A stretch of 64,000 nucleotides of DNA from Spirochaetia bacterium (GTDB lineage: Bacteria; Spirochaetota; Spirochaetia; UBA9216), in the NCBI GenBank assembly GCA_963675665.1, contig OY776510.1:1376001-1440000 (forward strand). Direction: 5' to 3'. Positions 8,811 to 27,391 of this stretch are shown here, one piece after another (position 1 is the first letter of the stretch; each line of letters starts with the position of its first letter). Both the position numbers and the translations under genes were made by a program. The notes beneath the pieces were generated by a model. It was not told where the DNA came from and ran no database searches. It saw only the letters and a list, made by a program, of their open reading frames with translations.

Positions 8811-8831
8811 GTTATTTCCTCCATAGTGCCG

Positions 8832-9794: not shown

Positions 9795-9825
9795 AGTCGC
9801 GCTCCTCTTTTACTGGTTTGTTAAA

Positions 9826-9985
9826 ATGATATAACAACAATAGTTTCGTGTCAATGAAAAATGATACAAATATAGAGACAATTCGAGTTAAATCGGGCTA
9901 AATATATCTAAAAATCATAATTTGTATTAAATAAAAGAAATAAATATTGACATAATTAGATTGTGGGGGGTAATATGTAGGTACA
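9826..9985. promoter_or_regulatory. Divergent sigma70 promoters with a candidate HutC/GntR operator
   Basis: Minus strand: TTGACA(9849-9854)-17-TATCAT(9826-9831). Plus strand: TTGACA(9947-9952)-18-TAATAT(9971-9976). TGTAGGTACA at 9976-9985 resembles HutC-subfamily boxes, and a UTRA-GntR lies at 14796. Confidence 0.55.
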
Positions 9986-10007
9986 AATAAAGCAAAGGGT
10001 TGGAATA

Positions 10008-10703: not shown

Positions 10704-12220
10704 TACTTTCATTTGACCTGGGAACAGGCGGCGCCAAGATCTGTGTTTACACTGAAAACGGTGAACTTCATTCAAAAACATTTAAAGCTTATGAAACGGC
10801 GTATCCTGCGGAGAGGTTTCATGTTCAGAATCCTGAAGACTGGTGGAAGGCTGTAGCGGAAGGTGTTTCGGAGTTGACCGTTAAAAATTCTTCCCTGAAG
10901 GTGAATATACGTTCCATAGCAATCTCGGGGCACAGTATGGCTGTAGTTCCGCTGGATGCGCAGGGAAATCTTGTATTTAATGATGTTCCAATTTGGTCTG
11001 ATACAAGAGCTGCGTCACAGGTAATGGAGTTTTTCAGTAAAACAGATAAAGAGGAATGGTATAAAAATACAGGCAACGGATTTTCACCCGAATGCTATTC
11101 CATCTTTAAAATAATGTGGTACAAGGAAAACCGCCCCGAGGCTTTTTCAAAAATCAGAACAATTCTTGGTTCAAAGGATTATATTAATTTTCTGCTTACG
11201 GGAAATATTGCAACCGATTATTCATATGCATCGGGTACCGGGACTTACAGTCTGAAGAAGAGACAGTATTTAACAGAATATTTCAGTACAGCCGGGGTTG
11301 AGCCGTCCATTGTTCCGAACCCGGGACCGTCCCATGAGTTGATAGGCAGGCTTCTTCCTTCGGTTGCAGAGCAGCTTGGCCTGCACCGGAAAGTGGAGGT
11401 ATATTGCGGCGGCGTGGATAATTCATGCATGGCGTTAGGAGCCCGAAACACCTCTGATGGAAGCGCCTATCTTTCTCTGGGGTCTTCAGCGTGGATAGCA
11501 GTATCTTCTGCCGAACCGGTTATTGACAATAAGATAAAGCCGTTTATTTTTGATCACGTAATACCGGATATGTACACATCTGCAACTTCCATTTTTTCTG
11601 CCGGCAGTTCTTTAAAGTGGTTCAGGCAGAATATTGCGTTCGGCCTGGAATCACTCGCAGAATCAGGAGATATGGATATATATGATCTGATTACGGAAAA
11701 GGCCGCCGAGAGCAGCCCCGGTGCAAACGGTTTGCTCTTTAACCCGACGCTGGCGGGTTCTCCTGAAGCAAGTGAGTATTCAGACATAACAGGGGCTTTT
11801 CTGAATATCCGGCTGGGCAGCCGTTTTGAGGACATGTGCCGTTCGGTTCTTGAAGGAATAACATATGAATTGAATGCAATGTGGATAAGATTGAATGAAT
11901 TATGCAGCCTGTCGAATGAAGTGGTAATAGTCGGTGGCGGCAGCAAAAGCGCATTCTGGCGCCGGATGTTTGCTGATGTTTTCAACTGCGATTTCAAAAG
12001 GATCAGTACCGACCAGGACGCTGCAGCTCTGGGTGCGGCGGCCATAGCCGCAGTAGGTTCCGGTGCATGGAGCAGTTATTCTGAAATTGAAAACGTAATA
12101 CATGATGTTGAATCAATGAGCCCTTCGGACGAAAAAGTCGGGTTATATAAGGATTATTATAAAAAATACAGCGCAACATGGAAAATGCTGTCTGAAATAG
12201 GGAAAGTTGTAAATGACTAA
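10700..12220 (+). CDS. FGGY-family carbohydrate kinase (xylulokinase-like)
   Basis: FDLGTGG, IWSDTR, GGVDN, SLGSS, VGGGSKS; overlaps the deoC stop (GTGA). Confidence 0.9.
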   Translation: MILSFDLGTGGAKICVYTENGELHSKTFKAYETAYPAERFHVQNPEDWWKAVAEGVSELTVKNSSLKVNIRSIAISGHSMAVVPLDAQGNLVFNDVPIWSDTRAASQVMEFFSKTDKEEWYKNTGNGFSPECYSIFKIMWYKENRPEAFSKIRTILGSKDYINFLLTGNIATDYSYASGTGTYSLKKRQYLTEYFSTAGVEPSIVPNPGPSHELIGRLLPSVAEQLGLHRKVEVYCGGVDNSCMALGARNTSDGSAYLSLGSSAWIAVSSAEPVIDNKIKPFIFDHVIPDMYTSATSIFSAGSSLKWFRQNIAFGLESLAESGDMDIYDLITEKAAESSPGANGLLFNPTLAGSPEASEYSDITGAFLNIRLGSRFEDMCRSVLEGITYELNAMWIRLNELCSLSNEVVIVGGGSKSAFWRRMFADVFNCDFKRISTDQDAAALGAAAIAAVGSGAWSSYSEIENVIHDVESMSPSDEKVGLYKDYYKKYSATWKMLSEIGKVVND

Positions 12221-12271
12221 TTTATTCAGAGACCTATTCGGTGTTGTCTGTGAACTGATGGAGGAAACATC

Positions 12272-13513
12272 ATGAGTTATAAAGATACTTTAATGGAACC
12301 TGTTAAAATCGGGAGCCGTGTTTGTAAAAACCGTTTTTTTATACAGGCAATGGAATGCAACGATGAGGATGAGAACGGAAATCCTTCCGAACTGACATAT
12401 AATCGGTATAAAAAGCTGATGGAAGGTCAGGCCGGGCTTGTTTCTCTTGAAGCAATAACAATAACAAGAGAAAGCCGAAGCCGTGATAATCAGCTTACGA
12501 TTATGGAATCAAACAGGGATGCTCTCGGAAAATTTGTCAATGAAGTTAAAAGTGTAAATCCCGATTCTCTGTTTATTTTTCAGCTCACCCATTCCGGTGA
12601 ATTGTCGAGCCCGGAATTCTCACGAAGGGTGACGGTGAATCCGCTGTACGGATACGGAGGCGACCTTCTTGAAGAAGCTGATATTGAGAGATTTATGGAT
12701 CAGTTTGTGCTTGCAGCAAAGATAACACATGATGCCGGGGCAGATGGAATTGATTTGAAACTCTGTCACGGGTACCTCGGCTCTCAGATTCTCAGGCCTT
12801 ATAATGATCGTAAATGGAAATACGGCGGCTCATGGGAGAACCGCAGCAGGTTCGCATTTGAATTGACCGAAAGAATATCAAGAGAAGTGAACGATAAAAA
12901 CTTCCTGATCGGTTCAAAAATCTCTGCCTGGGAAGGTTTTCCCGGCGGATTCGGAACAGACGGACCTGATTCTCCGATTATTGATCTCAGAGAACCGATA
13001 GCCTTACTGAAAGGTCTTGAGGAACGCGGAGCACAGTATTTTATCCAGTCGGCAGGAAGCCCGTCAATTACTATCAGCCTGACGCAGGCGGATAAATATC
13101 ATCCGTATTTTGCTTACCTTCATCAGTATTTCGCCAAAGAGATGAAAGCGCAGCTTAACCCCGGGACAGTTTTGATAGGATCGAATTTCTCGCTTTTCAG
13201 GGACGGAAAGAACGGCTTATGCGCTGTAAGTCCCGAAAAGAGTTCATTGCTGAATTACGGAGCACAATGTGTAGAGCGCGGAGTTGTAGATATGATAGGC
13301 CTTGGGCGCCAGTCACTTGCTGATCCGCTCCTGCCGTTGAAACTTGAGGAAGGTCGCGAGGATGAAATCAAGTATTGTGTCGGCTGCGACAATTGTCTTG
13401 AATTACTAATCCGGCAGAGCAAAGTAGGCTGCAGTACCTTCAACAGGTATTATACGGATATTCTCAGAAAAACCAGGGAAGAGAAAGGAAAGCTTGTAAT
13501 AAAGCATACCTAA
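12272..13513 (+). CDS. NADH:flavin oxidoreductase (Old Yellow Enzyme family) with a C-terminal Cys cluster
   Basis: KNRFF, QLTHSG, CHGYL, YGGSWENRSRF, GRQSLADP, CVGCDNC-x11-C. Confidence 0.85.
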   Translation: MSYKDTLMEPVKIGSRVCKNRFFIQAMECNDEDENGNPSELTYNRYKKLMEGQAGLVSLEAITITRESRSRDNQLTIMESNRDALGKFVNEVKSVNPDSLFIFQLTHSGELSSPEFSRRVTVNPLYGYGGDLLEEADIERFMDQFVLAAKITHDAGADGIDLKLCHGYLGSQILRPYNDRKWKYGGSWENRSRFAFELTERISREVNDKNFLIGSKISAWEGFPGGFGTDGPDSPIIDLREPIALLKGLEERGAQYFIQSAGSPSITISLTQADKYHPYFAYLHQYFAKEMKAQLNPGTVLIGSNFSLFRDGKNGLCAVSPEKSSLLNYGAQCVERGVVDMIGLGRQSLADPLLPLKLEEGREDEIKYCVGCDNCLELLIRQSKVGCSTFNRYYTDILRKTREEKGKLVIKHT

Positions 13514-13734
13514 CGAATGTGTCGGGAGACCGACACATTCGTTTTGGAGTTTTTCACTTTATGAAAAACTCCACAGACCAAAATGAAAAATAGGGCTTTT
13601 TGGTCTTGGAGTTTCAGCGCTTTGCGCTGAAACGTCCACAGATAGTCACCTTTTATATAAACATAGGGTGGAACGCCGATTGGGTAATGCCTGTCGGTAG
13701 AAAATAAAGAAACCAAATTATATGGAGGAAAAAA

Positions 13735-14691
13735 ATGAAAAGAACTGTAGTGCTAATTCTTACAGTGCTGATGCTTGCATCAGGAATGGTGTTTGCAGGT
13801 GGACAGCAGGAAGCAGCGGCAGGCAGCGATGTATTTCGCGTAGCCGTATCGTTTCCGCCGGCAAACAACGCATGGCAGGCAAAGATGCTTGATTCAGCAT
13901 TGGACGAAGCAGCAAAAGACGTAGGCGAATTTCATTTCGTAATCAAGAACGCAGTAGATGATGCCGACCAGCTGAACATTCTGACTACATTCATGCAGGA
14001 TGATTATGACATGATAATCTGTCTGCCCGGAAACGGCACCCTGATGACCCCGATCTGTGAAGAGATCTATGACGCCGGAATACAGCTGATGATAGTAGAC
14101 CGCCCGATTGAAAGCGACAAGTATACAGTACTTATCGGCGGCGACAACTACCTCTGCGGCTCAAATGCGGCGAAATATCTCGGCGACAGGCTTGGAGGCA
14201 AGGGCGACATAGCGATACTGAGAAGTTATGTGGGAATACCTATCGACCTCGACAGATACAACGGTTTCATGGACGTAATCAAGAAAGACTATCCCGGAAT
14301 CAAGGTAATAGTAGAAGCTGACGGCGAGTTCAACCAGGATGCGGGCCTGAATGCGATGAGCAACATACTTCCTGCATACCCGAAAATTGATGCAGTATAC
14401 TGCCAGGACGACGAATCTGCAGTAGGAGCAATCACAGCTATAGAGAATGCCGGCAGAACTGATATCCAGTTTGTAACGGGATTCGGCGGTTCAAAGGCTG
14501 CATACAAGCTTCTTCAGGAAGGCAATCCGATTTTCGGCGCATCAATGTCATACTGGCCTACAATGGGCGGAAGAGCACTTGCGCTGGCAAAATCAATACT
14601 TCGCGGCGAATCGTATGAAAAGGTCAACTATGATCCTACATATGCCGTAACAAAAGACAATGTAGGAAAATTCCTGCAGCACTCATACTAG
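13735..14691 (+). CDS. Sugar ABC substrate-binding protein (RbsB type), copy 2
   Basis: Protein identical to 6626-7582. Confidence 0.9.
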   Translation: MKRTVVLILTVLMLASGMVFAGGQQEAAAGSDVFRVAVSFPPANNAWQAKMLDSALDEAAKDVGEFHFVIKNAVDDADQLNILTTFMQDDYDMIICLPGNGTLMTPICEEIYDAGIQLMIVDRPIESDKYTVLIGGDNYLCGSNAAKYLGDRLGGKGDIAILRSYVGIPIDLDRYNGFMDVIKKDYPGIKVIVEADGEFNQDAGLNAMSNILPAYPKIDAVYCQDDESAVGAITAIENAGRTDIQFVTGFGGSKAAYKLLQEGNPIFGASMSYWPTMGGRALALAKSILRGESYEKVNYDPTYAVTKDNVGKFLQHSY

Positions 14692-14710
14692 GATCTGTTA
14701 TGAATTTTTA

Positions 14711-14750
14711 AAAATGGTAAATGGCGGTTGCGGCCGTCATTTACCATTTT
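14711..14750 (+). terminator. Terminator or stabilising hairpin
   Basis: AAAATGGTAAATGGCGG...CCGTCATTTACCATTTT inverted repeat. Confidence 0.65.
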
Positions 14751-14795
14751 GGAGAAAGAAAGTATATTATTGGCAGTTAAGTTAAAGGTAGTGTC

Positions 14796-15536
14796 ATGGC
14801 CGGTGAAAACAAACCATTGTATTCAAGAATAGAAGAAGCAGTTAAAGAACAGATAAAGAAAGGTGTTTATAAGCCCGGAGAATTGCTTCCGACAGAAGAA
14901 GAATTTACAAAACAATATAATGCCAGCAGGACTACTGTCCGTGCCGCCCTTTCAAATCTTGAAAAGCAGGGTTATGTCTGGAGAAAGCAGGGGAAGGGCT
15001 CTGTTGTAAAAGAGCTTAAATCCGCCCAGAATTTGAATTATCTCAGTTCATTGACAGAATCGCTTGAAGCCCGCGGAATGCGTGTTACAACGGGAATGCT
15101 GTCTATTGCGGAAGTTGTGCCTCCGCAGAAAGTCAGGGATGAAATAGATATAAACGAGGGCGACAAGGTTTTCTGTCTCCAGCGCACACGAATTGCAGAT
15201 GATATTCCCGTAGCTTATGTAAACAACTATATAATAAAATCAATAGCTCCCGACCTGAATACGAAGAAAGAGCTGCTTGAGGTTCACGGGTTATATAACG
15301 TTCTTGAAACAGAATACGGACTTGAAATAGAAAGCTGTATCGAGACAATAAATACATATATCAGCGGGCCCATGGAAATTGAACTTCTGCAGCTTGACAA
15401 GCAGCAGGCTCTTTTTCTCAGTAAACGGATAACGAAGCTTTCCGACGGCAGAATATTCGAATATGTAACCTCAATGATACGCGGGGACATGCACCAGTAT
15501 ACTGTTTTCCTGAAAGACAGGAGAAGTTTTGAGTAA
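14796..15536 (+). CDS. GntR-family regulator, HutC subfamily (UTRA domain)
   Basis: LPTEEE, SRTTVRAAL, QGKGS; ~245 aa with a UTRA-type C-terminus. Confidence 0.9.
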   Translation: MAGENKPLYSRIEEAVKEQIKKGVYKPGELLPTEEEFTKQYNASRTTVRAALSNLEKQGYVWRKQGKGSVVKELKSAQNLNYLSSLTESLEARGMRVTTGMLSIAEVVPPQKVRDEIDINEGDKVFCLQRTRIADDIPVAYVNNYIIKSIAPDLNTKKELLEVHGLYNVLETEYGLEIESCIETINTYISGPMEIELLQLDKQQALFLSKRITKLSDGRIFEYVTSMIRGDMHQYTVFLKDRRSFE

Positions 15537-15553
15537 AGACAGTTTCCTGTTGT

Positions 15554-16636
15554 TTATAGTTTAACAGGGCCTCCCGACTCGGCAGAACTATAGAGCCCGT
15601 CAACAATCTTCATAAGTATGCATGCCTGTTCCGGCGTATTAAACGGTTTTTCTTCACCCTTGGCGGCCATAATAAAATTGGCAGCGTTTCGTACTCTGCC
15701 CATCGTCGAATCCGGTTCGGTAACAATCTTTCGATTAACAGGCAGTCCGTTTTCATGGGTATATAATTCGCATATATCAATTGATGTATTATCAATACCG
15801 TCTTCCTGAAACTGCCGTTCAACAAGGCCTCCGGCTTTATCTCCCTGAAATGTAACATGGCATTTCTCATTTTTGTTCATTTCCGCCCACGAGCTTCTTA
15901 AAAAAAGAACCTGACCGCTTTTAAACTTAACAAAAGCATGGCTTGCGGTTTCCACATTATTTATACCTTTCTCATTGTCCGGAATTCCCCAGGGCCCTTT
16001 AAAGGTTTTATCTGATGAGAAATCAGAAAATGTAGCGGCAAGTATATATTCAGGTTCCGGAAAATCCATGAAGGAAAGGGCCAGATCCGCCATATGCAGA
16101 AGATCAATTACCGGCCCCCCGCCGGATAGTTCTTTATTTGTAAACCAGCTTCCGAATCCCGGAATCCCCGTCCTTCGTGTCCATTCAGCCTGCGCCGAGT
16201 TTATTCTGCCGACGGTGCCGTCCTTTATATATTTGGACATGGCAATTGAATCGGAACGTGCCCGGTTGTTGAAGTTGAACATAAGAATTTTGTCCGCTTT
16301 TTCCGCCGCGTTTTTCATTTGAACCGTCTCTTTATAGTTCAGGGCGGGAGGTTTCTCGCAGAAAACATGAAGTCCGGCGTTCAGGGCTTTTATGGCATAC
16401 TCTTTATGGTATTTATTCGGGGTTATGATTGTTACGGCATCAAGATCTTTTTCCCTGCTCAGCATTTCGTCGACATCTGTGTAGACTGAAGCAATTCCAT
16501 ATTTTTCAGCAAGGGTTTGTGCTGATGCTTTTGTTCTGGAGGTAACTGCAATAATCTTTGCGCCCGCCTGCAGAAATCCCCTGATATGAAAGTCGGCCAT
16601 GCCGCCGGCACCGATAATTCCTGTTTTAACTGACAT
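15554..16636 (-). CDS. Gfo/Idh/MocA oxidoreductase
   Basis: GIIGAGG, CEKPPA, GIPGFGSWFT, GGPVIDLLH. Start set at MSVKT after SD GGAGG. Confidence 0.88.
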   Translation of the reverse strand: MSVKTGIIGAGGMADFHIRGFLQAGAKIIAVTSRTKASAQTLAEKYGIASVYTDVDEMLSREKDLDAVTIITPNKYHKEYAIKALNAGLHVFCEKPPALNYKETVQMKNAAEKADKILMFNFNNRARSDSIAMSKYIKDGTVGRINSAQAEWTRRTGIPGFGSWFTNKELSGGGPVIDLLHMADLALSFMDFPEPEYILAATFSDFSSDKTFKGPWGIPDNEKGINNVETASHAFVKFKSGQVLFLRSSWAEMNKNEKCHVTFQGDKAGGLVERQFQEDGIDNTSIDICELYTHENGLPVNRKIVTEPDSTMGRVRNAANFIMAAKGEEKPFNTPEQACILMKIVDGLYSSAESGGPVKL

Positions 16637-16717
16637 CGAATCCTCCGGTTGATAAATTAAGATAACTATAAGATGAAAACGGGAAGATTGCAAATAATAA
16701 AAAACGATAATAAACGA

Positions 16718-16757
16718 TAGCAAACGCTTGCTAAATGAGAACAAACAGTTGTATAAT
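16718..16757 (+). promoter_or_regulatory. LacI-type operator overlapping the kinase promoter
   Basis: Near-perfect palindrome TAGCAAACGCTTGCTA 16718-16733 overlaps -35 TTGCTA; TATAAT at 16752-16757. Confidence 0.6.
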
Positions 16758-16805
16758 ACCTTATCCGGCTTTGTAAAAGCATTATTTTTTATTCAGGAGT
16801 TTGAT

Positions 16806-18335
16806 ATGGCGGTTAAGCTGATAGGAATTGATATAGGAACACAGGGGACAAAGGCTGCTCTTTTCAGTGAAGAAGGCGTAACTTTGGGCGAGGCTTTTCA
16901 GAAATCAAACCTTTTTCAGCCGGAACCCGGCGTGGTGGAGGAAGATCCCGAAGAACAGCTTGATGCCGTATGCAATACAATCAGAGAGCTGGTCAATAAA
17001 ACTTCAACCGATCCTTCCGAAATCGCCTGTATTGCAATAGACGGGCAGATGGCCGGGGTAATCGGCGTAGGTGAGGACGGCCTGAATGTAACTCCCTACG
17101 ATTCCTGGCTTGATACCCGTTGCGCCCCCTATATCAAGCAGCTGAAAGCTGAAGCCGCAGAAGATATACTTAATAAAACCGGCTGTGCTCCCAGCTTTAA
17201 CCACGGTCCGAAAAAGATCTGGTGGAAAAAAGAACGCCCCGAAATTTATAAAAAAATTAAAGCCTTTGTTCAGCCGGGAGGCTACGCAGCCATGCGGTTA
17301 TGCGGGCTTAGCGGAGATAAAGCTTTTATAGATGTTACCTATCTGCATTTCTCGGGTTTTGCGGATAACCGGAATTCAAAATGGGATGAAGATTTATGCA
17401 GACGTTTCGGGGTAGACATCGCAAAGCTTCCGAGAATTCTTCGTCCTGAAGAAATAGTAGGCAAGCTTGTCCCCGAAATGGCAACACGCACCGGACTTAA
17501 GGCAGGTACTCCGATTGCCGCAGGATGCGGTGATACTGCAGCAAGTTTTCTGTCCTGTGGAGCTGCAACCGAGGGTGTTTGTGTAGATGTTGCCGGAACT
17601 GCAAGCGTATATGCTTCAACAACCGCCGAATTCCAGGCTGACAGGAAACTCGTTCTCGGGTGCGGACAGTCGGCGGTTCCCGGAATGTGGCACCCGTATG
17701 CCTATATAAACGGCGGCGGAATGAACCTTGAATGGTTCAGAAAGGACATTGGAATGATGCTTCATCCTGATCAGGCTGCTGCGCACATCGAACTTGATTT
17801 CGGCAAACTGAATGAACTTGCCTCCGCTGTAGACCCCCGTGTAGACGACCCCCTGTTTGTTCCGCACCTGGCAGGACGGAACTCTCCTGCACAGCCGGAT
17901 CTTCGCGGGGCCTGGGCAGGACTTAACTGGAACCACAATGCCGGACACCTGTTTCGGGCCGTCTGTGAGGGCGTAGCGCTCGAATACCGGATATACCAGG
18001 AGACGACAATAGAGATGTACGACGACTTCACGCCGATGGAAATCCGGATAACCGGCGGCGGCGGCAAGAGTAGAATATGGAACCAGATTAAGGCTGATGT
18101 GCTGCAGATACCGGTTATCCCGGTTGATCGTCAGGAAGGCGCGCCGCTCGGTTCCGCTCTTGTCGCAGGCATGGCCGCCGGTGTTTTCAGCGATATAAAG
18201 ACAGCCGCTGATAAATGGATCAAAAAGGGCTCTTCAACCGAACCGTCCGCAGCTATGGCGGATCATTATAAAAACCGCGCAAAACGCTATGAATCGCTGA
18301 TGGAAGCTCTTAACGGGTGGGCCGAAGCCCTGTAG
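16806..18335 (+). CDS. FGGY-family carbohydrate kinase
   Basis: GIDIGTQG, WLDTR, GCGD, VAGT, TGGGGKS. Start at MAVK after SD AGGAG. Confidence 0.9.
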   Translation: MAVKLIGIDIGTQGTKAALFSEEGVTLGEAFQKSNLFQPEPGVVEEDPEEQLDAVCNTIRELVNKTSTDPSEIACIAIDGQMAGVIGVGEDGLNVTPYDSWLDTRCAPYIKQLKAEAAEDILNKTGCAPSFNHGPKKIWWKKERPEIYKKIKAFVQPGGYAAMRLCGLSGDKAFIDVTYLHFSGFADNRNSKWDEDLCRRFGVDIAKLPRILRPEEIVGKLVPEMATRTGLKAGTPIAAGCGDTAASFLSCGAATEGVCVDVAGTASVYASTTAEFQADRKLVLGCGQSAVPGMWHPYAYINGGGMNLEWFRKDIGMMLHPDQAAAHIELDFGKLNELASAVDPRVDDPLFVPHLAGRNSPAQPDLRGAWAGLNWNHNAGHLFRAVCEGVALEYRIYQETTIEMYDDFTPMEIRITGGGGKSRIWNQIKADVLQIPVIPVDRQEGAPLGSALVAGMAAGVFSDIKTAADKWIKKGSSTEPSAAMADHYKNRAKRYESLMEALNGWAEAL

Positions 18336-18973: not shown

Positions 18974-20122
18974 ATGAAGAGACTTGACTACATTCTTGTA
19001 AAACCGGCAGGGTCCGCCTGCAATCTGGCCTGCGCCTACTGTTTTTACCATGACAATAAAGAGAGCCGCGGTATAAAAAGAATGTCGTCGTCTGTGCTTC
19101 GTGAAATGATTAAACAGTGCCTTTCCGGAAGCGGTGAGGCTTCGGCTGATGAGAATTTTGTTTTCTGCTGGCAGGGCGGCGAGCCCACGCTTGCAGGCCT
19201 TGATTTCTATAAAGAGGTTATTGAACTTCAGAAAGAATACGGAAAAGGGAAAATTATCGGAAATGCTATCCAGACTAACGGACAGCTAATCAATGAAGAC
19301 TGGGTTGCGTTCTTTAAAAAATACCGTTTTATGGTAGGTTTGTCGCTGGACGGACCGGAAGATATTCATAATGAATACAGGACTGATCGAAAAGGCAGAG
19401 GCGCCTGGTTCCGGACGGAAGCGACAGCAAGGGAGCTTCTTTCACAGGGCATAGCTGTTAACTCAATGACTGTTGTTAATAACGTAACAGCGGAACATCC
19501 AGGGTTGATTTACGGTTATCTTAAAGACCTGGGTTTCAGGTGGATGCAGTTTATGCCGTGTCTTGAAGCCGGAAATGAAGGGATCGGAAAAGACCGGTCG
19601 GACGGGGCCTGTGTTCCTGCACACTTTTCGGTAAGCCCCGACGCCTACGGCAGTTTTCTCTGTACTTTATTCGACTGCTGGACAGCTGATTTTCACGGAA
19701 GCAGGGCTGCGGTTTCGATCAGGTTGTTTGATTCCGTTGCCGCAGTTTATGCCGGGCTGCCCGCAACTCAGTGTACCAACCGGTTTGAGTGCGGCGATTA
19801 TGTTGTTGTCGAGGCTGACGGCTCAGTTTACAGCTGTGATTTTTTTGTTGAAGAAAACTGGCGGCTTGGTAATCTGACGGAAACGCCGCTTCCGAAGCTG
19901 TTGAATTCCGAAACACAGAAGCGTTTCGGCAGGCAAAAAGCCGAACTTGTTCCCGGTTGCAGTGAATGCAGATGGCTGAAATTCTGCCGCGGCGGCTGTT
20001 TAAAAGACAGGATGCGTCTCAATGCCGGAAACGGGCAGAATTATTTCTGCCCGTCATACATGACGTTTTTTGAATATGCTGACAGGCGCTTCCGGGAAAT
20101 TGCCGAATGTATAAAAGCCTGA
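18974..20122 (+). CDS. Anaerobic sulfatase maturase (radical SAM/SPASM, anSME)
   Basis: KPAGSACNLACAYCFY, WQGGEPTL, QTNG, GSVYSCD, CSECRWLKFCRGGC..YFC. Confidence 0.92.
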   Translation: MKRLDYILVKPAGSACNLACAYCFYHDNKESRGIKRMSSSVLREMIKQCLSGSGEASADENFVFCWQGGEPTLAGLDFYKEVIELQKEYGKGKIIGNAIQTNGQLINEDWVAFFKKYRFMVGLSLDGPEDIHNEYRTDRKGRGAWFRTEATARELLSQGIAVNSMTVVNNVTAEHPGLIYGYLKDLGFRWMQFMPCLEAGNEGIGKDRSDGACVPAHFSVSPDAYGSFLCTLFDCWTADFHGSRAAVSIRLFDSVAAVYAGLPATQCTNRFECGDYVVVEADGSVYSCDFFVEENWRLGNLTETPLPKLLNSETQKRFGRQKAELVPGCSECRWLKFCRGGCLKDRMRLNAGNGQNYFCPSYMTFFEYADRRFREIAECIKA

Positions 20123-20141
20123 AACCACAGTAAAACGTCGG

Positions 20142-21530
20142 TTACCAGGTTTCAATATAGCCGGTTTCGTTTTTTACCCTTTCAAGTTCCGATTTCAGCA
20201 TGGGAAGCAGTTTTTTACCTTCGCCCGAACCGTACAGATCGTTATATTGCTTCGGATCGTTCAGTAAATCATAAATTTCCGGTTTTCTCCGGTTATTTTG
20301 ATAGGTGATGTATATGTAACGATCGGTTCTGACGGCAGCAATTCCAGGAATCGGTATCGGAAATACCGGGTAATGTTCATAAAGCCATGCAGTGCGTGTT
20401 TTTGCGGGTTTATTCTGCAATATCGGTAATACACTGACTCCCTGCATATTCTCCGGGACCGGAAGACCGGCAAGTTCAAGCAACGTCGGGGCCAGATCAA
20501 TGTTCAGCAGCATCTGTTCTTCCCGTCTTCCGGGGTTCTCGATGATTCCGGGCCCCCAGGCAAAGAACGGTATTTTTATGGATTCTTCGTATGCGGAACG
20601 TTTGTCGTAAAGACCGTGCTCTCCGAAATAATGACCATTGTCTCCGGCATAGACGACAAGGGTGTTCCGGTCGAGCCCGCTTTGTTTGAGGCTTTCAATA
20701 ATCCGGCCGACCTGTTCGTCAACCGAAAGAACCGTCTCGCAGTACCGCTGGTAGAGAAACGGAAGCGGGGCAGGGGCCCCGACAAAGAGATGGTCCCGGG
20801 TGATCGGTACGAAAGGGTCCGCTTCTTCAGGAAGCTGCAGATCAATTCCTTCGTAAGTATCGCGAAGATGTTCGGGCGGTAGAAATCCGAAATGAACGGC
20901 CTTATGAGACAGGTAGAGACAGAACGGTTTTGAACGGTCCTTTTCTATGAATTCAAGGGCGAAGTCGGTCAAGTCTTCGGTAATGTATTTGCCCGGTCTT
21001 TCCTGTTCTGTTCCGTCTATTATAAGGGGACAGTCTTCGTAAACTCCCTGGCCGCCCTGAACAGTGAATGTAATAAAATGGTCAACCCCATCGACTTCCG
21101 GCACTCCCTCGCCGGGCATGTGCCATTTGCCTATAAAGGCTGTTTCATAACCGTTATCATGAAGTATTTCCAGAAAACTTGTGTTCTGTTCCTCGTCCCA
21201 GACGGTATGATTTGTAGTTACCCCGTGTTTATGAGGATATTCTCCGGTCAGGAAACTGGCCCTTGAAGGGCTGCACAACGATGTTGTACAGAACGAATTG
21301 GAAAACATGACGCCGTCTTCAACCAGCGCATCGAGATTGGGCGTTTCAATAAACGGGTGGTCCATACAGCTGAAAGCGTCCCACCGGTGATCGTCGGTCA
21401 GAATAAAGATAATGTTCGGCCGGGGTTTAAGGTTGTCGGATTCGGCCTGCTTTTCAGACGATTGGGCAAATGATATTGATGCAGTCGAGAAAAAAATTAT
21501 GACGCCCGTAATCAATTGTTTTATATTCAT
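20142..21530 (-). CDS. Secreted Cys-type sulfatase (S1 family)
   Basis: Signal peptide; PNIIFILTDD, LCSPSRASFLTG, GKWH, GDNG, DLAPT. Confidence 0.92.
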   Translation of the reverse strand: MNIKQLITGVIIFFSTASISFAQSSEKQAESDNLKPRPNIIFILTDDHRWDAFSCMDHPFIETPNLDALVEDGVMFSNSFCTTSLCSPSRASFLTGEYPHKHGVTTNHTVWDEEQNTSFLEILHDNGYETAFIGKWHMPGEGVPEVDGVDHFITFTVQGGQGVYEDCPLIIDGTEQERPGKYITEDLTDFALEFIEKDRSKPFCLYLSHKAVHFGFLPPEHLRDTYEGIDLQLPEEADPFVPITRDHLFVGAPAPLPFLYQRYCETVLSVDEQVGRIIESLKQSGLDRNTLVVYAGDNGHYFGEHGLYDKRSAYEESIKIPFFAWGPGIIENPGRREEQMLLNIDLAPTLLELAGLPVPENMQGVSVLPILQNKPAKTRTAWLYEHYPVFPIPIPGIAAVRTDRYIYITYQNNRRKPEIYDLLNDPKQYNDLYGSGEGKKLLPMLKSELERVKNETGYIETW

Positions 21531-21542
21531 ATCTGGCTCCCG

Positions 21543-22109
21543 TTATCCGAATAATTTGAGGTATAGATTTAAAAATGTATAATAATAAAAGTGACCCAGC
21601 TCCCAGAAAAACAGCGTAAACAGCCCGCCCCCGATTACCAGCAGCACGGTTTCCTTTCTGAGAAGAACCTTTATGGCTTTGTCGCGGGTTTTTATTCTTT
21701 TTATTAATCTGCAGATTACCGATGCAATTCCGATCTCGAAAAATGCAAATACAACCGGCGCCAGCACGCAGTGATGAATCATGAGAAGAAGGACCTCCGG
21801 GATCGTGTAGATACCGAAAAAGGACGAAAGAATCATGAAAGATTTCAGAATCGGTGCGGCAGCCGCCAGCCAGAAAAGTCTTCTGAACAGGGTCTCTTTA
21901 TTGAAATTGAAGATGTAGATAATCAGCGGGGATATGTATGTGCAGATAATCATGCCGGCAAACCCGCCCCAGACAGCCAGATTGTTCAGAAAAGGATTCC
22001 TTATTTCAACAGAATTGTTATAAATCAGCGTGAATAATATCGTTCCTGTAACGGCGGCCGATGCCGGTATCCATAAATTTGCCGGAAATTTGTTTTTTGT
22101 TGTATTCAC
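21543..22109 (-). CDS. Hypothetical integral membrane protein
   Basis: About five hydrophobic segments; GTG start with SD; 10-12 bp gaps to neighbours. Confidence 0.7.
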   Translation of the reverse strand: MNTTKNKFPANLWIPASAAVTGTILFTLIYNNSVEIRNPFLNNLAVWGGFAGMIICTYISPLIIYIFNFNKETLFRRLFWLAAAAPILKSFMILSSFFGIYTIPEVLLLMIHHCVLAPVVFAFFEIGIASVICRLIKRIKTRDKAIKVLLRKETVLLVIGGGLFTLFFWELGHFYYYTFLNLYLKLFG

Positions 22110-22119
22110 ACGCTTTTCC

Positions 22120-22926
22120 TTACGGGTAAATATAACCGGGCTTCGGCGGAAGCGAATTATAAACCCGTTCTATTTTCAACCTGCCGGTTTTGCCGAAAGG
22201 AGTAAATCCAAAACCTCCGAAAGTTCCTTTAACAAGGGTGCCGACCATCTCAAGATTCAAACCGTTGACGGCAACAGCCGTATTTTTCTTAAGCCCGGCT
22301 GCACTTGAAGCGTAAGGTTTTGCAGGAATTACTATTGTCTCCGAGTCGGAAGCCTGAGCTTCGATTACAGGAAGAATATGCGGAAATTGATCGTCGCCTG
22401 TCCATGATATAAACTTGAGCGTCTGGAGCCCCTTCATGAGTTTTTCAGCCCAGGGTTTCATAACCTGGTTTCCAGTTTTTGGACCGTACAGGTTTCTGGC
22501 AAGTAAATTCAGAACCGCCCTAAAAACCACAGGTCCCATTCTGAGGTTTTCGCCTTCGGATATATCAATCAGATCGAAATAATGGACGGTATGCACCCCG
22601 AAATAGGTGTTGTAACGAAAAAGCGGTTTTTGATTGTACATATCGAATTCTTCGCCCTCATTCCGGCAGTGGGTCCAGCGGGCTGTTCCTGTCCAGAACA
22701 TCTTGTCGAGAGTCATAATCAGGAACCCGACATTTGGCCGGGTCTTCACATGTTCCTTGCTTAAACCTTCGGTAAACTGACCCATTACCAGCTGCTGCGG
22801 AGCAGAGGCCTGCAGGCTGGAAAGCATGGTTATATGCGGAGCGCCGTTGTCGTCGATTGTTGCCAGAAGCCCCACCTTGTATGTTGATTGAAACCGCTCA
22901 ATCATGTCGTCCGTCATTTTCTTCAT
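22120..22926 (-). CDS. Tandem pyridoxamine-5'-phosphate-oxidase-like (FMN-binding split barrel) protein
   Basis: LLATIDDNGAPHI..SKEHVKTRPNVG; the second half repeats the pattern (FISWTGDDQFPHI). Confidence 0.7.
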   Translation of the reverse strand: MKKMTDDMIERFQSTYKVGLLATIDDNGAPHITMLSSLQASAPQQLVMGQFTEGLSKEHVKTRPNVGFLIMTLDKMFWTGTARWTHCRNEGEEFDMYNQKPLFRYNTYFGVHTVHYFDLIDISEGENLRMGPVVFRAVLNLLARNLYGPKTGNQVMKPWAEKLMKGLQTLKFISWTGDDQFPHILPVIEAQASDSETIVIPAKPYASSAAGLKKNTAVAVNGLNLEMVGTLVKGTFGGFGFTPFGKTGRLKIERVYNSLPPKPGYIYP

Positions 22927-22946
22927 GTCGTTCCTCCTTTCTTTTT

Positions 22947-23924
22947 CTACGCAGTCATTCCGGTTGCATATACCCGGTTTTCCGGCAGACCCGCCGAGAG
23001 CGCAATCTTGCGCAGGATGTTCATTTTGCCGGCAGTCTGAAGTTCTGCATCTTTATATTTCCAGTCCTTTCCGAACCGGCTGTACTTGGCCGTGCACAGG
23101 TTGTTGAAAGCGCACATTTCCCATCGTTCAACCGCAGGGCCCAGTTCGGAACGTATAAATTCCGCAATTGCCCAGATGTTTTCATCGGAATCGGTCGCGC
23201 CGGGAATTACCGGGGTTCTTATCCACAGACGGTGCTGTTCAGGATATGTGCGGATGCAGGATGCCAGGCGCTTTATATTCTCAAGAATCAGGCTGTTGTC
23301 CGCCCCCGTATGCTTTTTATGCTCGGCCGGATCGATGATTTTAATGTCGTAAAGGAATAGGTCCGTGTAAGGCAGAACAGCTTCAAACGCCGTCCACGGG
23401 CACAGCCCGCAGGTATCGACTGCCGTGCCGATGCCTTCTTTTTTCAGCAGGCGAAGCACGGCGGCCGTGAACTCAGGCTGAAACAGCGCCTCACCGCCTG
23501 AAATCGTGACGCCCCCTTCCTTGCCGAAGAATGCCCTGTCTTTAATCAGTTCAGCCGTCAAAGTCTCGCTGGTATAACGATTGCCTTTAGTCTGCATTGC
23601 CAGGGCCGGGCAGTTGGTACAGCATTCAAGGCATCCATTGCATCGTTCCAGATTCCTGACAATCCCGTCCGGTCCCATACTTAAGGCGCCGGCGCCGCAG
23701 TTGTTAATGCACTCGCCGCAGCCCATACAGCGGTCCGGGAAATATTCGATCTCAATATCAGGCGATATGCTTTCGGGATTGTGACACCATTCGCAGCGCA
23801 GCGGGCAGCCCTTTAGAAAAGCGGTCGTGCGCAGCCCGGGTCCGTCTTCGGTCGACATCCGCTGGATATCCAGGACCAGACCTTCACCGGCCGATTTGCT
23901 GCTGTTTTCGAGGTTAATATTCAA
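22947..23924 (-). CDS. Glycyl-radical enzyme activating enzyme with a 2[4Fe-4S] insertion
   Basis: EDGPGLRT, KGCPLRCEWCHNPES, CMGCGEC..C and CNGCLEC..CP, GGVTISGGE. Confidence 0.95.
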   Translation of the reverse strand: MNINLENSSKSAGEGLVLDIQRMSTEDGPGLRTTAFLKGCPLRCEWCHNPESISPDIEIEYFPDRCMGCGECINNCGAGALSMGPDGIVRNLERCNGCLECCTNCPALAMQTKGNRYTSETLTAELIKDRAFFGKEGGVTISGGEALFQPEFTAAVLRLLKKEGIGTAVDTCGLCPWTAFEAVLPYTDLFLYDIKIIDPAEHKKHTGADNSLILENIKRLASCIRTYPEQHRLWIRTPVIPGATDSDENIWAIAEFIRSELGPAVERWEMCAFNNLCTAKYSRFGKDWKYKDAELQTAGKMNILRKIALSAGLPENRVYATGMTA

Positions 23925-23925
23925 G

Positions 23926-26439
23926 TTACATCTCCCTGTGGCTTTCGCGTGCTATTATCTCGTCCTGCAGTTCACGGCCGATTGAGCTGAAGTAGGCGTT
24001 GTAGCCGGTTACTCTTACAAGCAGGTTCGGAAAATCTTTCGGGTGCTTTTGGGCTTCCTTAAGCATTTCAGCGTCAAGCAGGTTGACCTGAAGGGCTGTT
24101 CCGCCGTTTTCGGTGTAGCCGCGCAAAAAGGCCTTGAATTTTTCCTTAGCCGCCGGGTTTCTCAGCAGCGAGGTATTGAAAGTTATAGTATGGCTTGCGC
24201 CGTTCGGAAGGCTGTTGAGGTATCCGGCAAAATCACCGCCTTCGCCGACGGCCTTCCCTCCCAGCGCCTTGCCGACCGAGTTGCTGTTTGCAGTAGGCCC
24301 GTTGATGTCGGCGCCGTTGCTCGGGCAGATTGCGTTGGAAAGGAACTGTCCCTTTTTCCGGCCGTCGGGGCTGGCAGGCAGAATAAACCCGTCGCCCACC
24401 CAGTAGTTCCAGCTGAGCATGCCGGGGCGGTAGATTGCGTTTGTAGCGGTGGTCCGGTATTTCCATACCTCAGACGTCCAGTTGTCCATTACGGCAAGCG
24501 CAAGCGCGTCGGCATCGTCATCGTCGCGCCCGTATTTCGGGGCCTGGTTTTTCGCGCGGGCCTGCAGCACTTCATGACCTTCCCAGTTGTCCCTGAGCGC
24601 TTCGGCAAGCTGCTCAAGAGAGCAGATTTTTTGATCATAAACAAGATATTTCACTGCAAGCAGGGAATCGACTGTTGTCGCATAGGTTACTGCTTCAATT
24701 GTAACGAAATTAAGTTCAGCGCCGCCCCGTGTTACATCGGTCGCCTTGTCCGCGCAGCCTTTCACCAGCAGCGACAGGTAAGGCGTCGGGCTGAAATCGG
24801 CCCTCAGGGTCTCACTTTTTTCATAGACATCGACCATTTTCTTTATTATATAGCGGGTCTGGACAACATACGCGTTCCAGAACTTGTCCCAGCTGTCAAG
24901 ATCGGAAAGCGCTCCGGTTTCAGGCCCGTCCTGTTTAATCTTTTCTGATTTGCCAGTCATTTCATCTGTATGCGGAAGCAGATCGCGCCCGTTGCCGAAG
25001 ACCAGCTCAACAGCTTTTAAAAGATTAAGATTGCAGTTTACGGTATTTGACCGGTCGTTGCCGACCATGGTGTTCTCAAGACATCCTACTGACGCATAGT
25101 CAAAAACGTTGTCTTCGTTAATAAAATTCTGAACGCCCGCCTCTTCCGCTTCGCGCAACATTCCCGCCATGGAACGTTCGTCGAAATTAAGCAGAAACGG
25201 GGCCCCCTGGCTGCTTAATATCATGTCCGTGACCCTGTCCAGCAGTTCTTCCGGGGAATTCCGGTGCAGCCTGACGTTCGGTTTAGGTTCGAGAATGGGG
25301 CTCATTTCGTCTATAACTTCTAGAAGCAGCCATGTTGTATCGTTAGTCATGTCTACCCCGTTCTTTCCCATTCCCGACAGGTTAAAAAGCTGTCCGAACC
25401 CCGCGGTGATTCCCTGGTTTGCGCCGACCCTGATTTGAGCGTCGTAAACTGTATTGCAGTGGAACCAGAAACAGCCGAGGATCTCTTTCATGAAATCACG
25501 ATCAACACCCGCGCTGATGGAATTCCGGTAATAGGGATCAAGAATCTGATCAAGACGGCCGAACGACAGCCCCGGACCGGGATAGTTTTCATCCGACATT
25601 ATCAGCATATGGGTCATCCAAAGCGACTGAACCGCCTCATGAAATGTTTCGGCGCCCTGCCACGGTACCTTTTCCGAGATCCTTGCCATCTCAAGCAGTT
25701 CCGCCCGTCGGGTTTCGTCCTTTTCAAGCGCAGCTTCTTTCCTGCAGAGCCATGAATACCTCGCCGCCACTTCCTTCGGAATAGTGCATGCTGTTTTCAT
25801 TGCGTTAAGCTGGGCCCCCTTTTCTCCGTCGCGGTCCTTTCGGCTCAGTTTCATAATTTTATTTTCAAGTTCGGCATAAAGCGAGCTGAATCCGTTCTTG
25901 AGGATGGGTGCGTAATCAGGTATCAGGTGTCCGCTGGTTGCCCCTGCATTGCCGTACCCGTGATTGTGAAACCAGATGAGGGCGGACCTTGCGCCGTTTT
26001 TGCCGTACATTTGTTTATCCCGCTGTTTAGCCTCGGATTTTGTCCAGCAGCCGGAAGTAAACAGGTTGAAATTCGAGCCGCATAAAAGGTCCCCGGGAAG
26101 AATGATCTTTTGCATGTGTTTGACCATTACTTCTTTAAGAAAGAATGAGCGACGTTCGGCTATGGACATTTTATAAAAGCCTTTATCCATCGGTATATCC
26201 TTTGCGGCCTGGTAGACAGATGCCCGGAATGTTCCGTGAAAAGCATATGTTTCGGGGACAATAAGAAAACTGTTCTCATCGTAAACAATATCCCAGGGGG
26301 TGCCGGTTGAATAACAGGCGGATTCATTATTCCAGTTTCGTTTAACTCCCTGAAAATAATAGTCCCTGAGAAATTTTACCCTCGGCGACAGTTCTCCCGG
26401 TTCCTTGATATTGAATTTTTGCTGAGCTGATTCCGACAT
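23926..26439 (-). CDS. Glycyl radical enzyme of unknown class (not pyruvate formate-lyase)
   Basis: Cys loop SVGCLEN, Gly loop VRVTGYNAYF, GRLDQ, PKYGRD, SPDGRK. Start at MSES after SD GGAGG; 837 aa. Confidence 0.93.
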   Translation of the reverse strand: MSESAQQKFNIKEPGELSPRVKFLRDYYFQGVKRNWNNESACYSTGTPWDIVYDENSFLIVPETYAFHGTFRASVYQAAKDIPMDKGFYKMSIAERRSFFLKEVMVKHMQKIILPGDLLCGSNFNLFTSGCWTKSEAKQRDKQMYGKNGARSALIWFHNHGYGNAGATSGHLIPDYAPILKNGFSSLYAELENKIMKLSRKDRDGEKGAQLNAMKTACTIPKEVAARYSWLCRKEAALEKDETRRAELLEMARISEKVPWQGAETFHEAVQSLWMTHMLIMSDENYPGPGLSFGRLDQILDPYYRNSISAGVDRDFMKEILGCFWFHCNTVYDAQIRVGANQGITAGFGQLFNLSGMGKNGVDMTNDTTWLLLEVIDEMSPILEPKPNVRLHRNSPEELLDRVTDMILSSQGAPFLLNFDERSMAGMLREAEEAGVQNFINEDNVFDYASVGCLENTMVGNDRSNTVNCNLNLLKAVELVFGNGRDLLPHTDEMTGKSEKIKQDGPETGALSDLDSWDKFWNAYVVQTRYIIKKMVDVYEKSETLRADFSPTPYLSLLVKGCADKATDVTRGGAELNFVTIEAVTYATTVDSLLAVKYLVYDQKICSLEQLAEALRDNWEGHEVLQARAKNQAPKYGRDDDDADALALAVMDNWTSEVWKYRTTATNAIYRPGMLSWNYWVGDGFILPASPDGRKKGQFLSNAICPSNGADINGPTANSNSVGKALGGKAVGEGGDFAGYLNSLPNGASHTITFNTSLLRNPAAKEKFKAFLRGYTENGGTALQVNLLDAEMLKEAQKHPKDFPNLLVRVTGYNAYFSSIGRELQDEIIARESHREM

Positions 26440-26505
26440 ATCGTATCCTCCTGTAAATACTTTTTTAAGCAAGGGTTCGCTTTTTTATTAGCTTCACCGC
26501 AGTAA

Positions 26506-27198
26506 TTATTTCATTTTGTCCTTAATAATTTTTTCTCCGTTATCAAGCAACATTTCCATGACAGCCGAACTTTCTTCTGCATTGCCGTCGATGATGGCAT
26601 TAATCAATTTTTCATGCTGGGTGTAGATCTCTGAGGGGTTTTTGATGACTGAATAAAAAGTTTCAATGAACTGCATTTGGAGGGGTTCGAATGATTTTAG
26701 AATAAGCGGGTAAAACGGATTGCCGGATGCTACTGCAACTCTGTGATGTAAGGCAAAATCGTTTGCCGCGCGTTCCGGGTCCGAGACTGTGCTTTTTTCA
26801 GTTTCGAGGATATCCTTCAATATAGAGATGTCCGATTCCTTGCGCTTTTTTGCCGCAAGGGCGGCTGTTTCCATTTCAACAAGCCTGCGGCAGTCGATCA
26901 GTCCTTCAAGCAGCCCGGTAGCCAGGCGTCCTCCGTTGTAATGCATGATTGATTCGAGGACTGCAATTGTACCTTCTGTAAGGTAATCTGTAACCACGTA
27001 GCCTTTTCGCGGACGCGTGCGTATGAATCCCATTGAAGCAAGCTGGCCGAGGCCGGAATGAATAACAGTGCGGCTCATTCCAAGTTCTTTTACAAGTTCG
27101 CGTTCAGGCGGCAGCAGTTCTCCGCATTGCAGTTCGCCGGAGATGATCCGGCGTTCAATTTCACGCATAAACTTTTCTTTCTGGCTTGGTTCGCTCAT
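26506..27198 (-). CDS. GntR/FadR-family regulator (FCD domain)
   Basis: LPPEREL, MSRTVI, DFALH, ASGNP, QHEKLI. Confidence 0.9.
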   Translation of the reverse strand: MSEPSQKEKFMREIERRIISGELQCGELLPPERELVKELGMSRTVIHSGLGQLASMGFIRTRPRKGYVVTDYLTEGTIAVLESIMHYNGGRLATGLLEGLIDCRRLVEMETAALAAKKRKESDISILKDILETEKSTVSDPERAANDFALHHRVAVASGNPFYPLILKSFEPLQMQFIETFYSVIKNPSEIYTQHEKLINAIIDGNAEESSAVMEMLLDNGEKIIKDKMK

Positions 27199-27207
27199 AA
27201 TTGCTCC

Positions 27208-27256
27208 TGTGGTACGACCACAGATCTATTGTATTGCCGAATTCCGGATAATGCAA
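27208..27256 (-). promoter_or_regulatory. Sigma70 promoter and FadR-type operator of the GRE operon
   Basis: TTGCAT(27251-27256)-17-TACAAT(27228-27233). Inverted repeat TGTGGT-ACG-ACCACA at 27208-27222 lies between the -10 and the SD. Confidence 0.75.
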
Positions 27257-27391
27257 GGTTTTTGTATATAATTTTGTCGGGATAATTTTGTCGAGGAGTT
27301 GTTTTAATTGTGTGCGATTAAAAAATAAAGCCCTCTAAAATGAAGGATTTTAAAGGGCCTGCTGTATGGTGTTGTTACGTCCGGCGGGGGT

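Follow-up and report, generated by a model that had tools for sequence, protein, structure and literature searches.

A widespread glycyl radical enzyme cassette with a tandem split-barrel partner, joined by a secreted sulfatase in a Spirochaetia bacterium

Background

Glycyl radical enzymes (GREs), which are sensitive to oxygen, carry out chemistry that is otherwise closed to anaerobes, and each new class has opened a pathway (those of choline, hydroxyproline, isethionate and the anhydro-sugars). Here we describe a GRE encoded in a 64,000-nucleotide stretch of the genome of a Spirochaetia bacterium (assembly GCA_963675665.1, contig OY776510.1, positions 1,376,001 to 1,440,000; hereafter the window). 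Its gene lies on one strand with those of an FCD-domain GntR regulator, a GRE activase, a protein with two predicted split-barrel domains (the partner), a membrane protein and a secreted sulfatase, and the convergent gene that follows encodes an anaerobic sulfatase-maturating enzyme (anSME). The known GRE eliminases and isomerases are enumerated in a 2026 review of the superfamily, which in its sections 5.6 and 5.7 gives Cys-X-Glu (CXE) as their common signature, the eliminases being 1,2-eliminases (PMC13450708); in the window GRE this motif is C453-L-E455. We read the enzyme as a new CXE-type eliminase or isomerase acting on an alcohol that can also be supplied by desulfation, with a product that is probably an aldehyde, and put the probability of this reading at roughly 0.55.

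Glycerol dehydratase (1R8W/1R9D) and 1,2-propanediol dehydratase (5I2A/5I2G) resemble the window GRE in their PFL-like barrel, glycyl motif and CXE motif, in the His at the position of His164, and in a dedicated activase with extra Fe-S clusters; a further likeness is the presence of aldehyde-handling neighbours, which here are found in relatives of the cassette. In contrast, scores against these dehydratases are 277 and 216 bits, respectively, other pocket stretches differ, and there is no microcompartment in the window. Unlike the glycerol and propanediol dehydratase systems, the present cassette has a tandem split-barrel partner and an FCD-GntR regulator as obligatory components. HypD (6VXC), the trans-4-hydroxy-L-proline dehydratase and a CXE eliminase, gives the highest score of any solved structure (287 bits), but the cut-off of its equivalog model is missed and no link to a pyrroline-5-carboxylate reductase is seen, save for one unrelated neighbour family. 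YbiW and PflD, which open the ring of 1,5-anhydrohexitol-6-phosphate, and HplG also share the CXE loop; in the review, they are described as cleaving a C-O or C-N bond beside a carbinol without net elimination (PMC13450708). Isomerase-type chemistry of this kind would suit an ether or a sugar-type compound as well. These enzymes differ from the window GRE in score (227-229 bits for YbiW and PflD, 182 bits for HplG), and their phosphotransferase system (PTS)/aldolase context is not conserved here.

A constant extra small protein also accompanies the multisubunit GREs, namely benzylsuccinate synthase (BSS; beta and gamma subunits) and 4-hydroxyphenylacetate decarboxylase (HPAD; gamma subunit). 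The subunits of these hydroalkylase and decarboxylase classes are small Fe-S proteins, unlike the double split-barrel of PNPOx/FMN-binding fold that stands here beside a CXE enzyme. As for the sulfatase, its nearest solved relatives are the mucin-desulfating sulfatase 7P24 and the Bacteroides GlcNAc-6-sulfatase 5G2V, S1 formylglycine sulfatases that share with it the CSPSR motif, the SGSH_C domain, a secretion signal and an adjacent anSME. Unlike these two, which it matches at 255-268 bits over two stretches only, the window sulfatase is of a kind always paired with a membrane protein (186-230 residues in this family) and lies in a probable operon with a GRE.

Results and discussion

Class and active site of the GRE

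The GRE carries the glycyl motif RVTGY and is matched by both domain models of the superfamily (Table 1). In 29 family members, G812 of RVTG812Y and the Cys loop GC453LE455 are invariant, and the loop lines up with its counterparts in HypD, CutC and glycerol dehydratase. The activase gene begins 1 bp past the GRE stop codon, and its product carries a CX3CX2C motif and a two-cluster ferredoxin-like insert. By these motifs and profile matches, the GRE, with its dedicated activase, is assigned as a bona fide member of the (PFL-like) GRE superfamily.

An earlier note on this locus had placed the GRE outside every characterised class, and this placement holds: the cut-offs of all NCBIfam equivalog models are missed, including those for HypD (NF043068; 367 bits against a cut-off of 1100), HpfG (337 against 1000), HpsG (335 against 1000), CutC (311 against 1050), indoleacetate decarboxylase (218 against 1100), HPA decarboxylase (155 against 1150) and PFL (78 against 994). 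The TIGR01774 model of the PFL2/glycerol dehydratase subfamily scores 411 bits, and its cut-off of 678.2 bits is not reached. Among solved structures, the best matches after HypD are CutC (286 bits) and glycerol dehydratase, with IslA, IseG, HpsG, PflD, YbiW, 8ID1, 8IOF, propanediol dehydratase, HplG, HPAD, BSS, MasD and PFL scoring lower. In the review, 8ID1 and 8IOF are HpyG and HpzG, and the C-S cleaving GREs hold their sulfonate with an Arg/Gln/Arg triad (PMC13450708); whole-protein scores of the latter enzymes (IslA, IseG and HpsG) are 230-244 bits.

All of the segments singled out in the earlier note (GCLE, TSGHLIPDY, ENYPGPGLS, AGFGQ, MLSWNYW and DRSNTVNCN) are found in the GRE translation, together with RVTGY. 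Its claim that TSGHLIPDY has His where the glycerol, propanediol and hydroxyproline dehydratases have His and CutC has Asp stands in part: His171 aligns with His164 of glycerol dehydratase and CutC does have Asp, while HypD and propanediol dehydratase fall outside the printed alignments at this position. Past the Cys loop and in the vicinity of ENYPGPG, the sequence is unlike that of all three aligned relatives (HypD, CutC and glycerol dehydratase). We assign the GRE on these comparisons to a new family of CXE-type enzymes.

The conserved cassette and its regulator

A protein search returned thousands of GRE relatives at approximately 65% identity across phyla, in records labelled Clostridia, Spirochaetes, Desulfobacterales, Syntrophales and Anaerolineae. 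In 80 genome loci, the activase gene is present in 70, the partner gene in 66 and the regulator gene in 47, with most misses at contig ends. The split-barrel partner is conserved, as had been proposed: it is absent from only one (L021; loci and genomes are designated here by L and G numbers) of the 67 genome loci judged to have enough downstream sequence. Judged from the locus ends, the other 13 of the 14 partner-less loci stop at the end of a contig. A further 80 metagenome loci, many of them on short contigs, were gathered using the partner as query; the combined set of 164 loci contains 149 partner, 129 GRE, 129 activase and 64 regulator genes.

A TGGT-N3-ACCA site lies upstream of 34 of the 35 regulator-first cassettes in other genomes. 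Where the regulator gene comes last (loci labelled Izemoplasmatales/Mycoplasmatota), the site is instead upstream of the GRE gene in four of five cases. The cassette operator fits the class TNGT-N3-ACNA, which we take to be the consensus for FadR/FCD-type regulators, and the GntR, FCD and FadR_C models are all matched by every cassette regulator (55/55). The conserved unit can be delimited from these loci as the FCD-GntR regulator with its operator, the GRE, the activase and the tandem split-barrel protein. The regulator is presumed to be an autoregulated repressor. Its residues Asp147, His151 and His195 are conserved, a pattern that presumably fits the metal-dependent, carboxylate-binding FCD type. 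The FadR_C match was also considered as a sign of an acyl-CoA effector; it decides nothing in this respect, as all 55 regulators match FCD as well.

The cassette is found in 4 of 60 relatives, in none of five genomes of the same genus and in 56 of 400 other genomes of the phylum. The G+C content of the window is 0.50-0.53 over positions 22001-26000, compared with 0.44-0.47 on either side. Given this patchy distribution and G+C shift, the core is best read as a self-contained cassette that is probably horizontally mobile. Cassette records come from rumen, sediment and sludge. Neither a GRE with a PNPOx-like partner nor a GRE-sulfatase operon was found in the full-text literature (supplements aside) or in the available text of PMC13450708, where this type of partner goes unmentioned for any GRE; the relevant passages of PMC12583861, PMC3543383 and PMC9888536 treat other GREs, and LssP, the PNPOx-like protein of the limonene succinate synthase operon, belongs to a different system. 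The GRE cassette is widespread, yet unstudied in the literature searched.

The tandem split-barrel partner

Over 2,800 clusters make up the partner family, and their names go no further than 'hypothetical' or 'PNPOx family protein'. An alignment of 34 partner sequences has 16 invariant positions. In the AlphaFold2 model of the window protein (pLDDT 85.7) there are two beta-barrels, and a Foldseek search with each half gave matches of probability 1.0 and TM (target) 0.67-0.75 to HupZ, 2HTD (a putative PNPOx), and 3IN6 and 1WLK (FMN-binding proteins of Syntrophomonas and Desulfovibrio, respectively); F420 reductases and the prenylated-FMN maturase PhdC are also among the matches. A profile search gave weak matches over both halves. 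PF01243 scores 25.1 bits on the window protein, under its gathering cut-off of 28.1, and many homologues carry a precomputed PF01243 match. The model predicts a split-barrel fold that occurs twice in one chain, and we read the partner as a flavin-dependent enzyme or carrier that may act on the GRE product or substrate. Prediction of a complex between shortened chains (GRE residues 94-837 and partner residues 6-261) gave no supported interface, a result that is informative neither way.

The sulfatase and membrane protein

The window sulfatase is the sole PF00884 gene in the 5.15 Mb genome. It contains LCSPSR, which includes the C/S-x-P-x-R maturation motif, and a signal peptide was read by eye. 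The earlier note had grouped the membrane protein and sulfatase with the GRE as apparently co-transcribed genes, and had the GRE act on a compound released by desulfation. This picture is modified here, since the membrane protein, sulfatase and anSME lie outside the conserved unit: 96 of the 107 informative cassettes (those with at least 1.5 kb of downstream sequence or with the trait present; 41 rows with too little flank are uncounted) are without these genes. As there is no sulfatase near these 96 cassettes, desulfation cannot be the general source of substrate for the family, although it fits this lineage.

The membrane protein and sulfatase genes occur as a pair beside 11 of the 107 informative cassettes. 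The pair is downstream of the partner gene in L004, L119, L155, L166 and L168 (in L043, which stops there at a contig end, only the membrane protein gene is seen); it is upstream of the regulator gene in L142, G255, G303 and G356, and approximately 4 kb off in L131. The pair-bearing cassettes other than L004 diverge from that of the window, with GREs approximately 63% identical and partners 42-46% identical. On a partner tree, a quick FastTree build with branches not tested for support, the pair trait needs nine changes for its 11 positives, so the associations are scattered rather than the result of one inherited event; with shuffled labels 9-11 changes are needed, and nine is reached in 20 of 500 shuffles. 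In a sample of 401 genomes of the phylum, the membrane protein is found in 20, and in all 20 its best place adjoins an orthologous sulfatase gene (43-69% identical). The membrane protein and sulfatase genes form a separate two-gene unit that is an optional but recurrent add-on. The partner gene is present in 18 of the 20 membrane-positive genomes versus 39 of the 381 others, a contrast inflated by kinship (both features occur in the same few families). Away from the cassette, the pair is found with a second sulfatase and an anSME, or with a major facilitator superfamily (MFS) sugar transporter. L020 has a different sulfatase, without a signal, and comes from a Clostridia metagenome-assembled genome (MAG) with 10 sulfatases in 2.2 Mb.

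In G049, from another spirochaete family, the partner gene is directly followed by remnants of a sulfatase (61 residues, 56% identical) and of an anSME (53 residues, 45% identical) (L093, 9201-9553). No intact open reading frame (ORF) covers these remnants and the genome has no intact PF00884 gene, which suggests that a sulfatase/anSME pair has decayed here next to a divergent cassette. Because the window sulfatase is the only one in its genome, the pair recurs in two arrangements and remnants are left in G049, the link between cassette and sulfatase appears to be more than chance.

The family of the membrane protein (L174-L193) is undescribed; positions conserved in it are Pro, Glu, His-His, Cys and Gly-Asp. 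Some genomes have up to four copies, and a second sulfatase and anSME sometimes come after it.

Features of the window locus

The gene order is confirmed from the ORF coordinates, and the intergenic gaps of 66, 1, 20, 10 and 12 bp and the TGTGGT-N3-ACCACA operator are as previously claimed (Table 1). The most likely GRE start is the ATG at 26439, which has AGGAGG ahead of it. An exact copy of the operator occurs once in the whole genome; a genome-wide search for an operator regulon found sites with one mismatch at four places, compared with two for the reversed control, and no regulon was evident. The hairpin that closes the upstream gene is taken to mark the 5' border of the operon. No minus-strand terminator-like site was found in any short gap between the cassette genes. 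Given these short gaps without terminator-like sites and the strong hairpin behind the upstream gene, co-transcription from the regulator to the sulfatase gene is likely.

Table 1. Features of the GRE locus (positions in the window)
Feature	Position	Strand	Evidence
Convergent anSME (radical SAM/SPASM)	18974-20122	+	TIGR03942 392.2 bits (cut-off 349.45)
Secreted Cys-type (CSPSR) sulfatase with SGSH_C	20142-21530	-	PF00884 211.5 bits
Polytopic membrane protein, 188 aa	21543-22109	-	No Pfam or NCBIfam match
Tandem split-barrel (PNPOx-like) protein, 268 aa, family-specific partner	22120-22926	-	Predicted from fold and profile
GRE-activating radical SAM enzyme	22947-23924	-	TIGR02494 300 bits (cut-off 174.35); Pfam Radical_SAM and Fer4
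Glycyl radical enzyme (GRE), 837 aa	23926-26439	-	PFL-like barrel (PF02901) 398 bits; Gly_radical (PF01228) 66.8 bits (cut-off 22.2)
FCD-domain GntR regulator, FadR subfamily, 230 aa	26506-27198	-	GntR 53.2, FCD 58.7, FadR_C 42.5 bits
Palindromic operator TGTGGTCGTACCACA, TGTGGT-CGT-ACCACA	27208-27222	.	5 nt downstream of the -10 hexamer
Promoter-like TTGCAT-17 nt-TACAAT	27228-27256	-	Read by eye; under scan threshold (-35 hexamer 3/6)
Intrinsic-terminator-like hairpin, 14-pair stem and T run	27328-27360	-	Closes the upstream RpiB-like gene

The cassette is flanked by sugar/polyol genes on one side and by RpiB, nitroreductase and methionine genes on the other, and none of these flank genes recurs beside other cassettes. 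The sugar/polyol block (7749-18335), just upstream of the anSME gene and seemingly unrelated to the cassette, contains genes for two FGGY kinases, a GFO/IDH/MocA oxidoreductase, a periplasmic sugar-binding protein, a GntR/UTRA regulator, a xylose-isomerase-like TIM barrel protein, a DeoC-type aldolase, a Zn-dependent alcohol dehydrogenase and an OYE-type flavoprotein. Farther along, genes for a B12-binding radical SAM protein (36073-37617) and a radical SAM protein with Radical_SAM_C (38786-39811) flank a solute-binding protein gene.

Other neighbours of the cassette

The earlier observation that there are no aldehyde or alcohol dehydrogenase genes is accepted for the window but does not extend to one clade of relatives, in which genes for an aldehyde:ferredoxin oxidoreductase (AOR), the lipid carrier SCP2 and an iron-dependent alcohol dehydrogenase (Fe-ADH) follow the partner gene. 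The order in this clade is partner-(membrane protein-sulfatase)-AOR-SCP2-Fe-ADH-SCP2 (L119, L138, L155 and L156), with AOR present also in L148 and L168; a convergent acyl-CoA ligase gene is found in one locus of the clade and a TauE-like gene in another. AOR is also encoded beside membrane protein-sulfatase pairs that lie away from the cassette (G182 and G235). CoA ligases near the cassette are matched by the AMP-binding model in 12 loci and are of PaaK type in five, the two sets overlapping. In nine loci of rumen Clostridia and one Myxococcota MAG (L001, L023, L037, L038, L046, L051, L052, L067, L072 and L015), the gene for a geranylgeranyl-reductase-like FAD enzyme lies on the same strand and starts within approximately 60 bases of where the partner gene ends; a partial copy lies at the same place in one metagenome contig. 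Genes for a CrtI/carotenoid-isomerase-like protein and a ferredoxin-reductase-type protein with a 2Fe-2S domain often come next. Add-ons seen at single loci are linalool-dehydratase-like, tocopherol-cyclase-like, GH31, GH20, BNR and PTS EIIA proteins.

At L091 (G029), the GH31 gene (7763-9782) overlaps the partner end and a GH20 hexosaminidase gene (1642-3261) lies upstream of the cassette, a further add-on confined to one lineage and in this case directed at glycosides. A trio of GlpA-like dehydrogenase, Pyr_redox_2 and DUF1667 genes is present in L022, L063, L074 and L079, with a glycerol kinase gene adjoining in L022 and L079; the records are labelled Anaerolineae, Clostridia and Izemoplasmatales/Mycoplasmatota (three phyla). 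A second, canonical PFL2-type GRE (PFL-like 591 bits) is encoded directly after the partner in the metagenome locus L116 (9935-12313), and such a gene occupies the same place in two more metagenome loci, L149 and L153. Two candidate substrate types, each supported at single loci only, were rejected: a sugar acid or sialic acid, for which there was a weak NanR-like score (80.7 against a cut-off of 260) and the single BNR, GH20 and GH31 neighbours, and an amino acid, for which there was one racemase neighbour.

Proposed reaction and alternatives

In the proposed route, the FCD-GntR repressor would bind the TGGT-N3-ACCA operator at its own promoter and control the GRE, activase and partner genes. 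A thiyl radical would abstract H from the carbinol carbon of the substrate while Glu455 deprotonates the hydroxyl, and the adjacent C-O (or C-N) group would leave or migrate to give a carbonyl product, probably an aldehyde. We infer attack at the carbinol and an aldehyde or ketone product from CXE chemistry, as set out in sections 5.6 and 5.7 of PMC13450708, and from the aldehyde-handling and CoA-ligase neighbours. In this lineage, the membrane protein-sulfatase pair would have been inserted behind the cassette, with its maturase anSME convergent; the secreted sulfatase may strip sulfate from an ester of the substrate, and the free alcohol would then reach the GRE. A carboxylic acid formed downstream is a plausible effector of the FCD regulator.

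Several points tell against this reading. Most cassettes are without a nearby sulfatase, as counted above. In 14 of the 19 other membrane-positive genomes the pair and the partner gene are apart (on different contigs in 13, and by 289 kb in G353), and no partner gene was found in the membrane-positive genomes G245 and G437. The AOR/SCP2/alcohol dehydrogenase extension comes from one clade (three changes on the partner tree), and the other add-ons point elsewhere (the glycosidases, the GlpK/GlpA-like set, and the geranylgeranyl-reductase-like and CrtI-like proteins). The window partner scores below the Pfam PNPOx cut-off, its role as a flavoprotein being predicted from the fold.

A possible but doubtful alternative is that the membrane protein, sulfatase and anSME make up an unrelated unit for general sulfate-ester scavenging, a neighbour of the cassette by chance. 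The autonomy of the pair (together in 20/20 genomes, mostly away from the cassette, and elsewhere joined by a second sulfatase and anSME or by an MFS sugar transporter) is consistent with this, as are the many cassettes without it and the sulfatase-rich Clostridia MAG of L020, in which adjacency comes cheaply; yet the sole sulfatase of the window genome sits 10-12 bp behind operon genes, the juxtaposition recurs, with two different gene orders, in no fewer than five cassette lineages that are separate on the tree, and the partner gene accompanies the membrane protein in nearly all of its genomes (a figure inflated by kinship, as noted). We consider it very unlikely that the GRE is a divergent B12-independent glycerol/1,2-diol dehydratase and its cassette an ordinary glycerol/diol fermentation module. 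The CXE motif is retained and the catalytic His164 of glycerol dehydratase is matched by His171 in the alignment, glycerol kinase and the GlpA-like/DUF1667 trio occur near cassettes in three phyla, and AOR and Fe-ADH neighbours are consistent with an aldehyde product. However, TIGR01774 stays well under its cut-off (411 versus 678 bits) and 1R8W reaches only 277 bits; in the printed alignment, the GHS and WHD stretches of the dehydratase, for which we assume a role in that enzyme, are GPG and NTV in the GRE. Moreover, no known dehydratase needs a split-barrel partner, and an identity of approximately 65% among GREs across phyla points to a distinct, fixed specificity.

The partner might also be dedicated to the activase as a flavin electron donor of low potential, or be a non-catalytic GRE subunit or substrate carrier, which we regard as unlikely. 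Small subunits occur in other GRE classes, the activase stop and partner start are at most a few bases apart, or overlap, at most loci, and among the structural neighbours of the partner are the FMN-binding electron-transfer protein of Desulfovibrio and HupZ, which binds haem. The spacing, however, does not single out the activase, since close packing is common to all three genes (GRE, activase and partner), and no other GRE operon is known to encode its own reductant.

Returning to the new CXE-type eliminase or isomerase, a tentative and rather improbable elaboration is that the cassette would give anaerobes a hitherto undescribed way of handling alcohols, diols or glyceryl ethers that do not dissolve in water (of lipid or isoprenoid type), as well as their sulfate esters. 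A hydrophobic substrate is hinted at by the SCP2, geranylgeranyl-reductase-like, CrtI-like, linalool-dehydratase-like and tocopherol-cyclase-like genes, which are found in a few lineages. Radical elimination or allylic isomerisation by the GRE would then yield a fatty aldehyde from the alcohol; AOR would oxidise this aldehyde or Fe-ADH would reduce it, a CoA ligase would activate the acid, and the FCD regulator would respond to that acid. As for the double split-barrel protein, it would act as a flavin ene-reductase or carry the hydrophobic substrate.

Conclusions

The GRE described here belongs to one of the larger unassigned families, as the number of partner clusters (>2,800) and the presence of the cassette in 56 of 400 genomes of the phylum indicate. 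From the recurrent sulfatase pair, we read the GRE substrate as a compound that also exists as a sulfate ester, while the aldehyde-handling genes in relatives indicate the kind of product to be expected. Together, these two features would narrow the substrate to a short, testable list, with the product of the sulfatase first. The sole sulfatase of this genome, placed in the probable operon of a GRE, is thus a first clue to the substrate of the enzyme.

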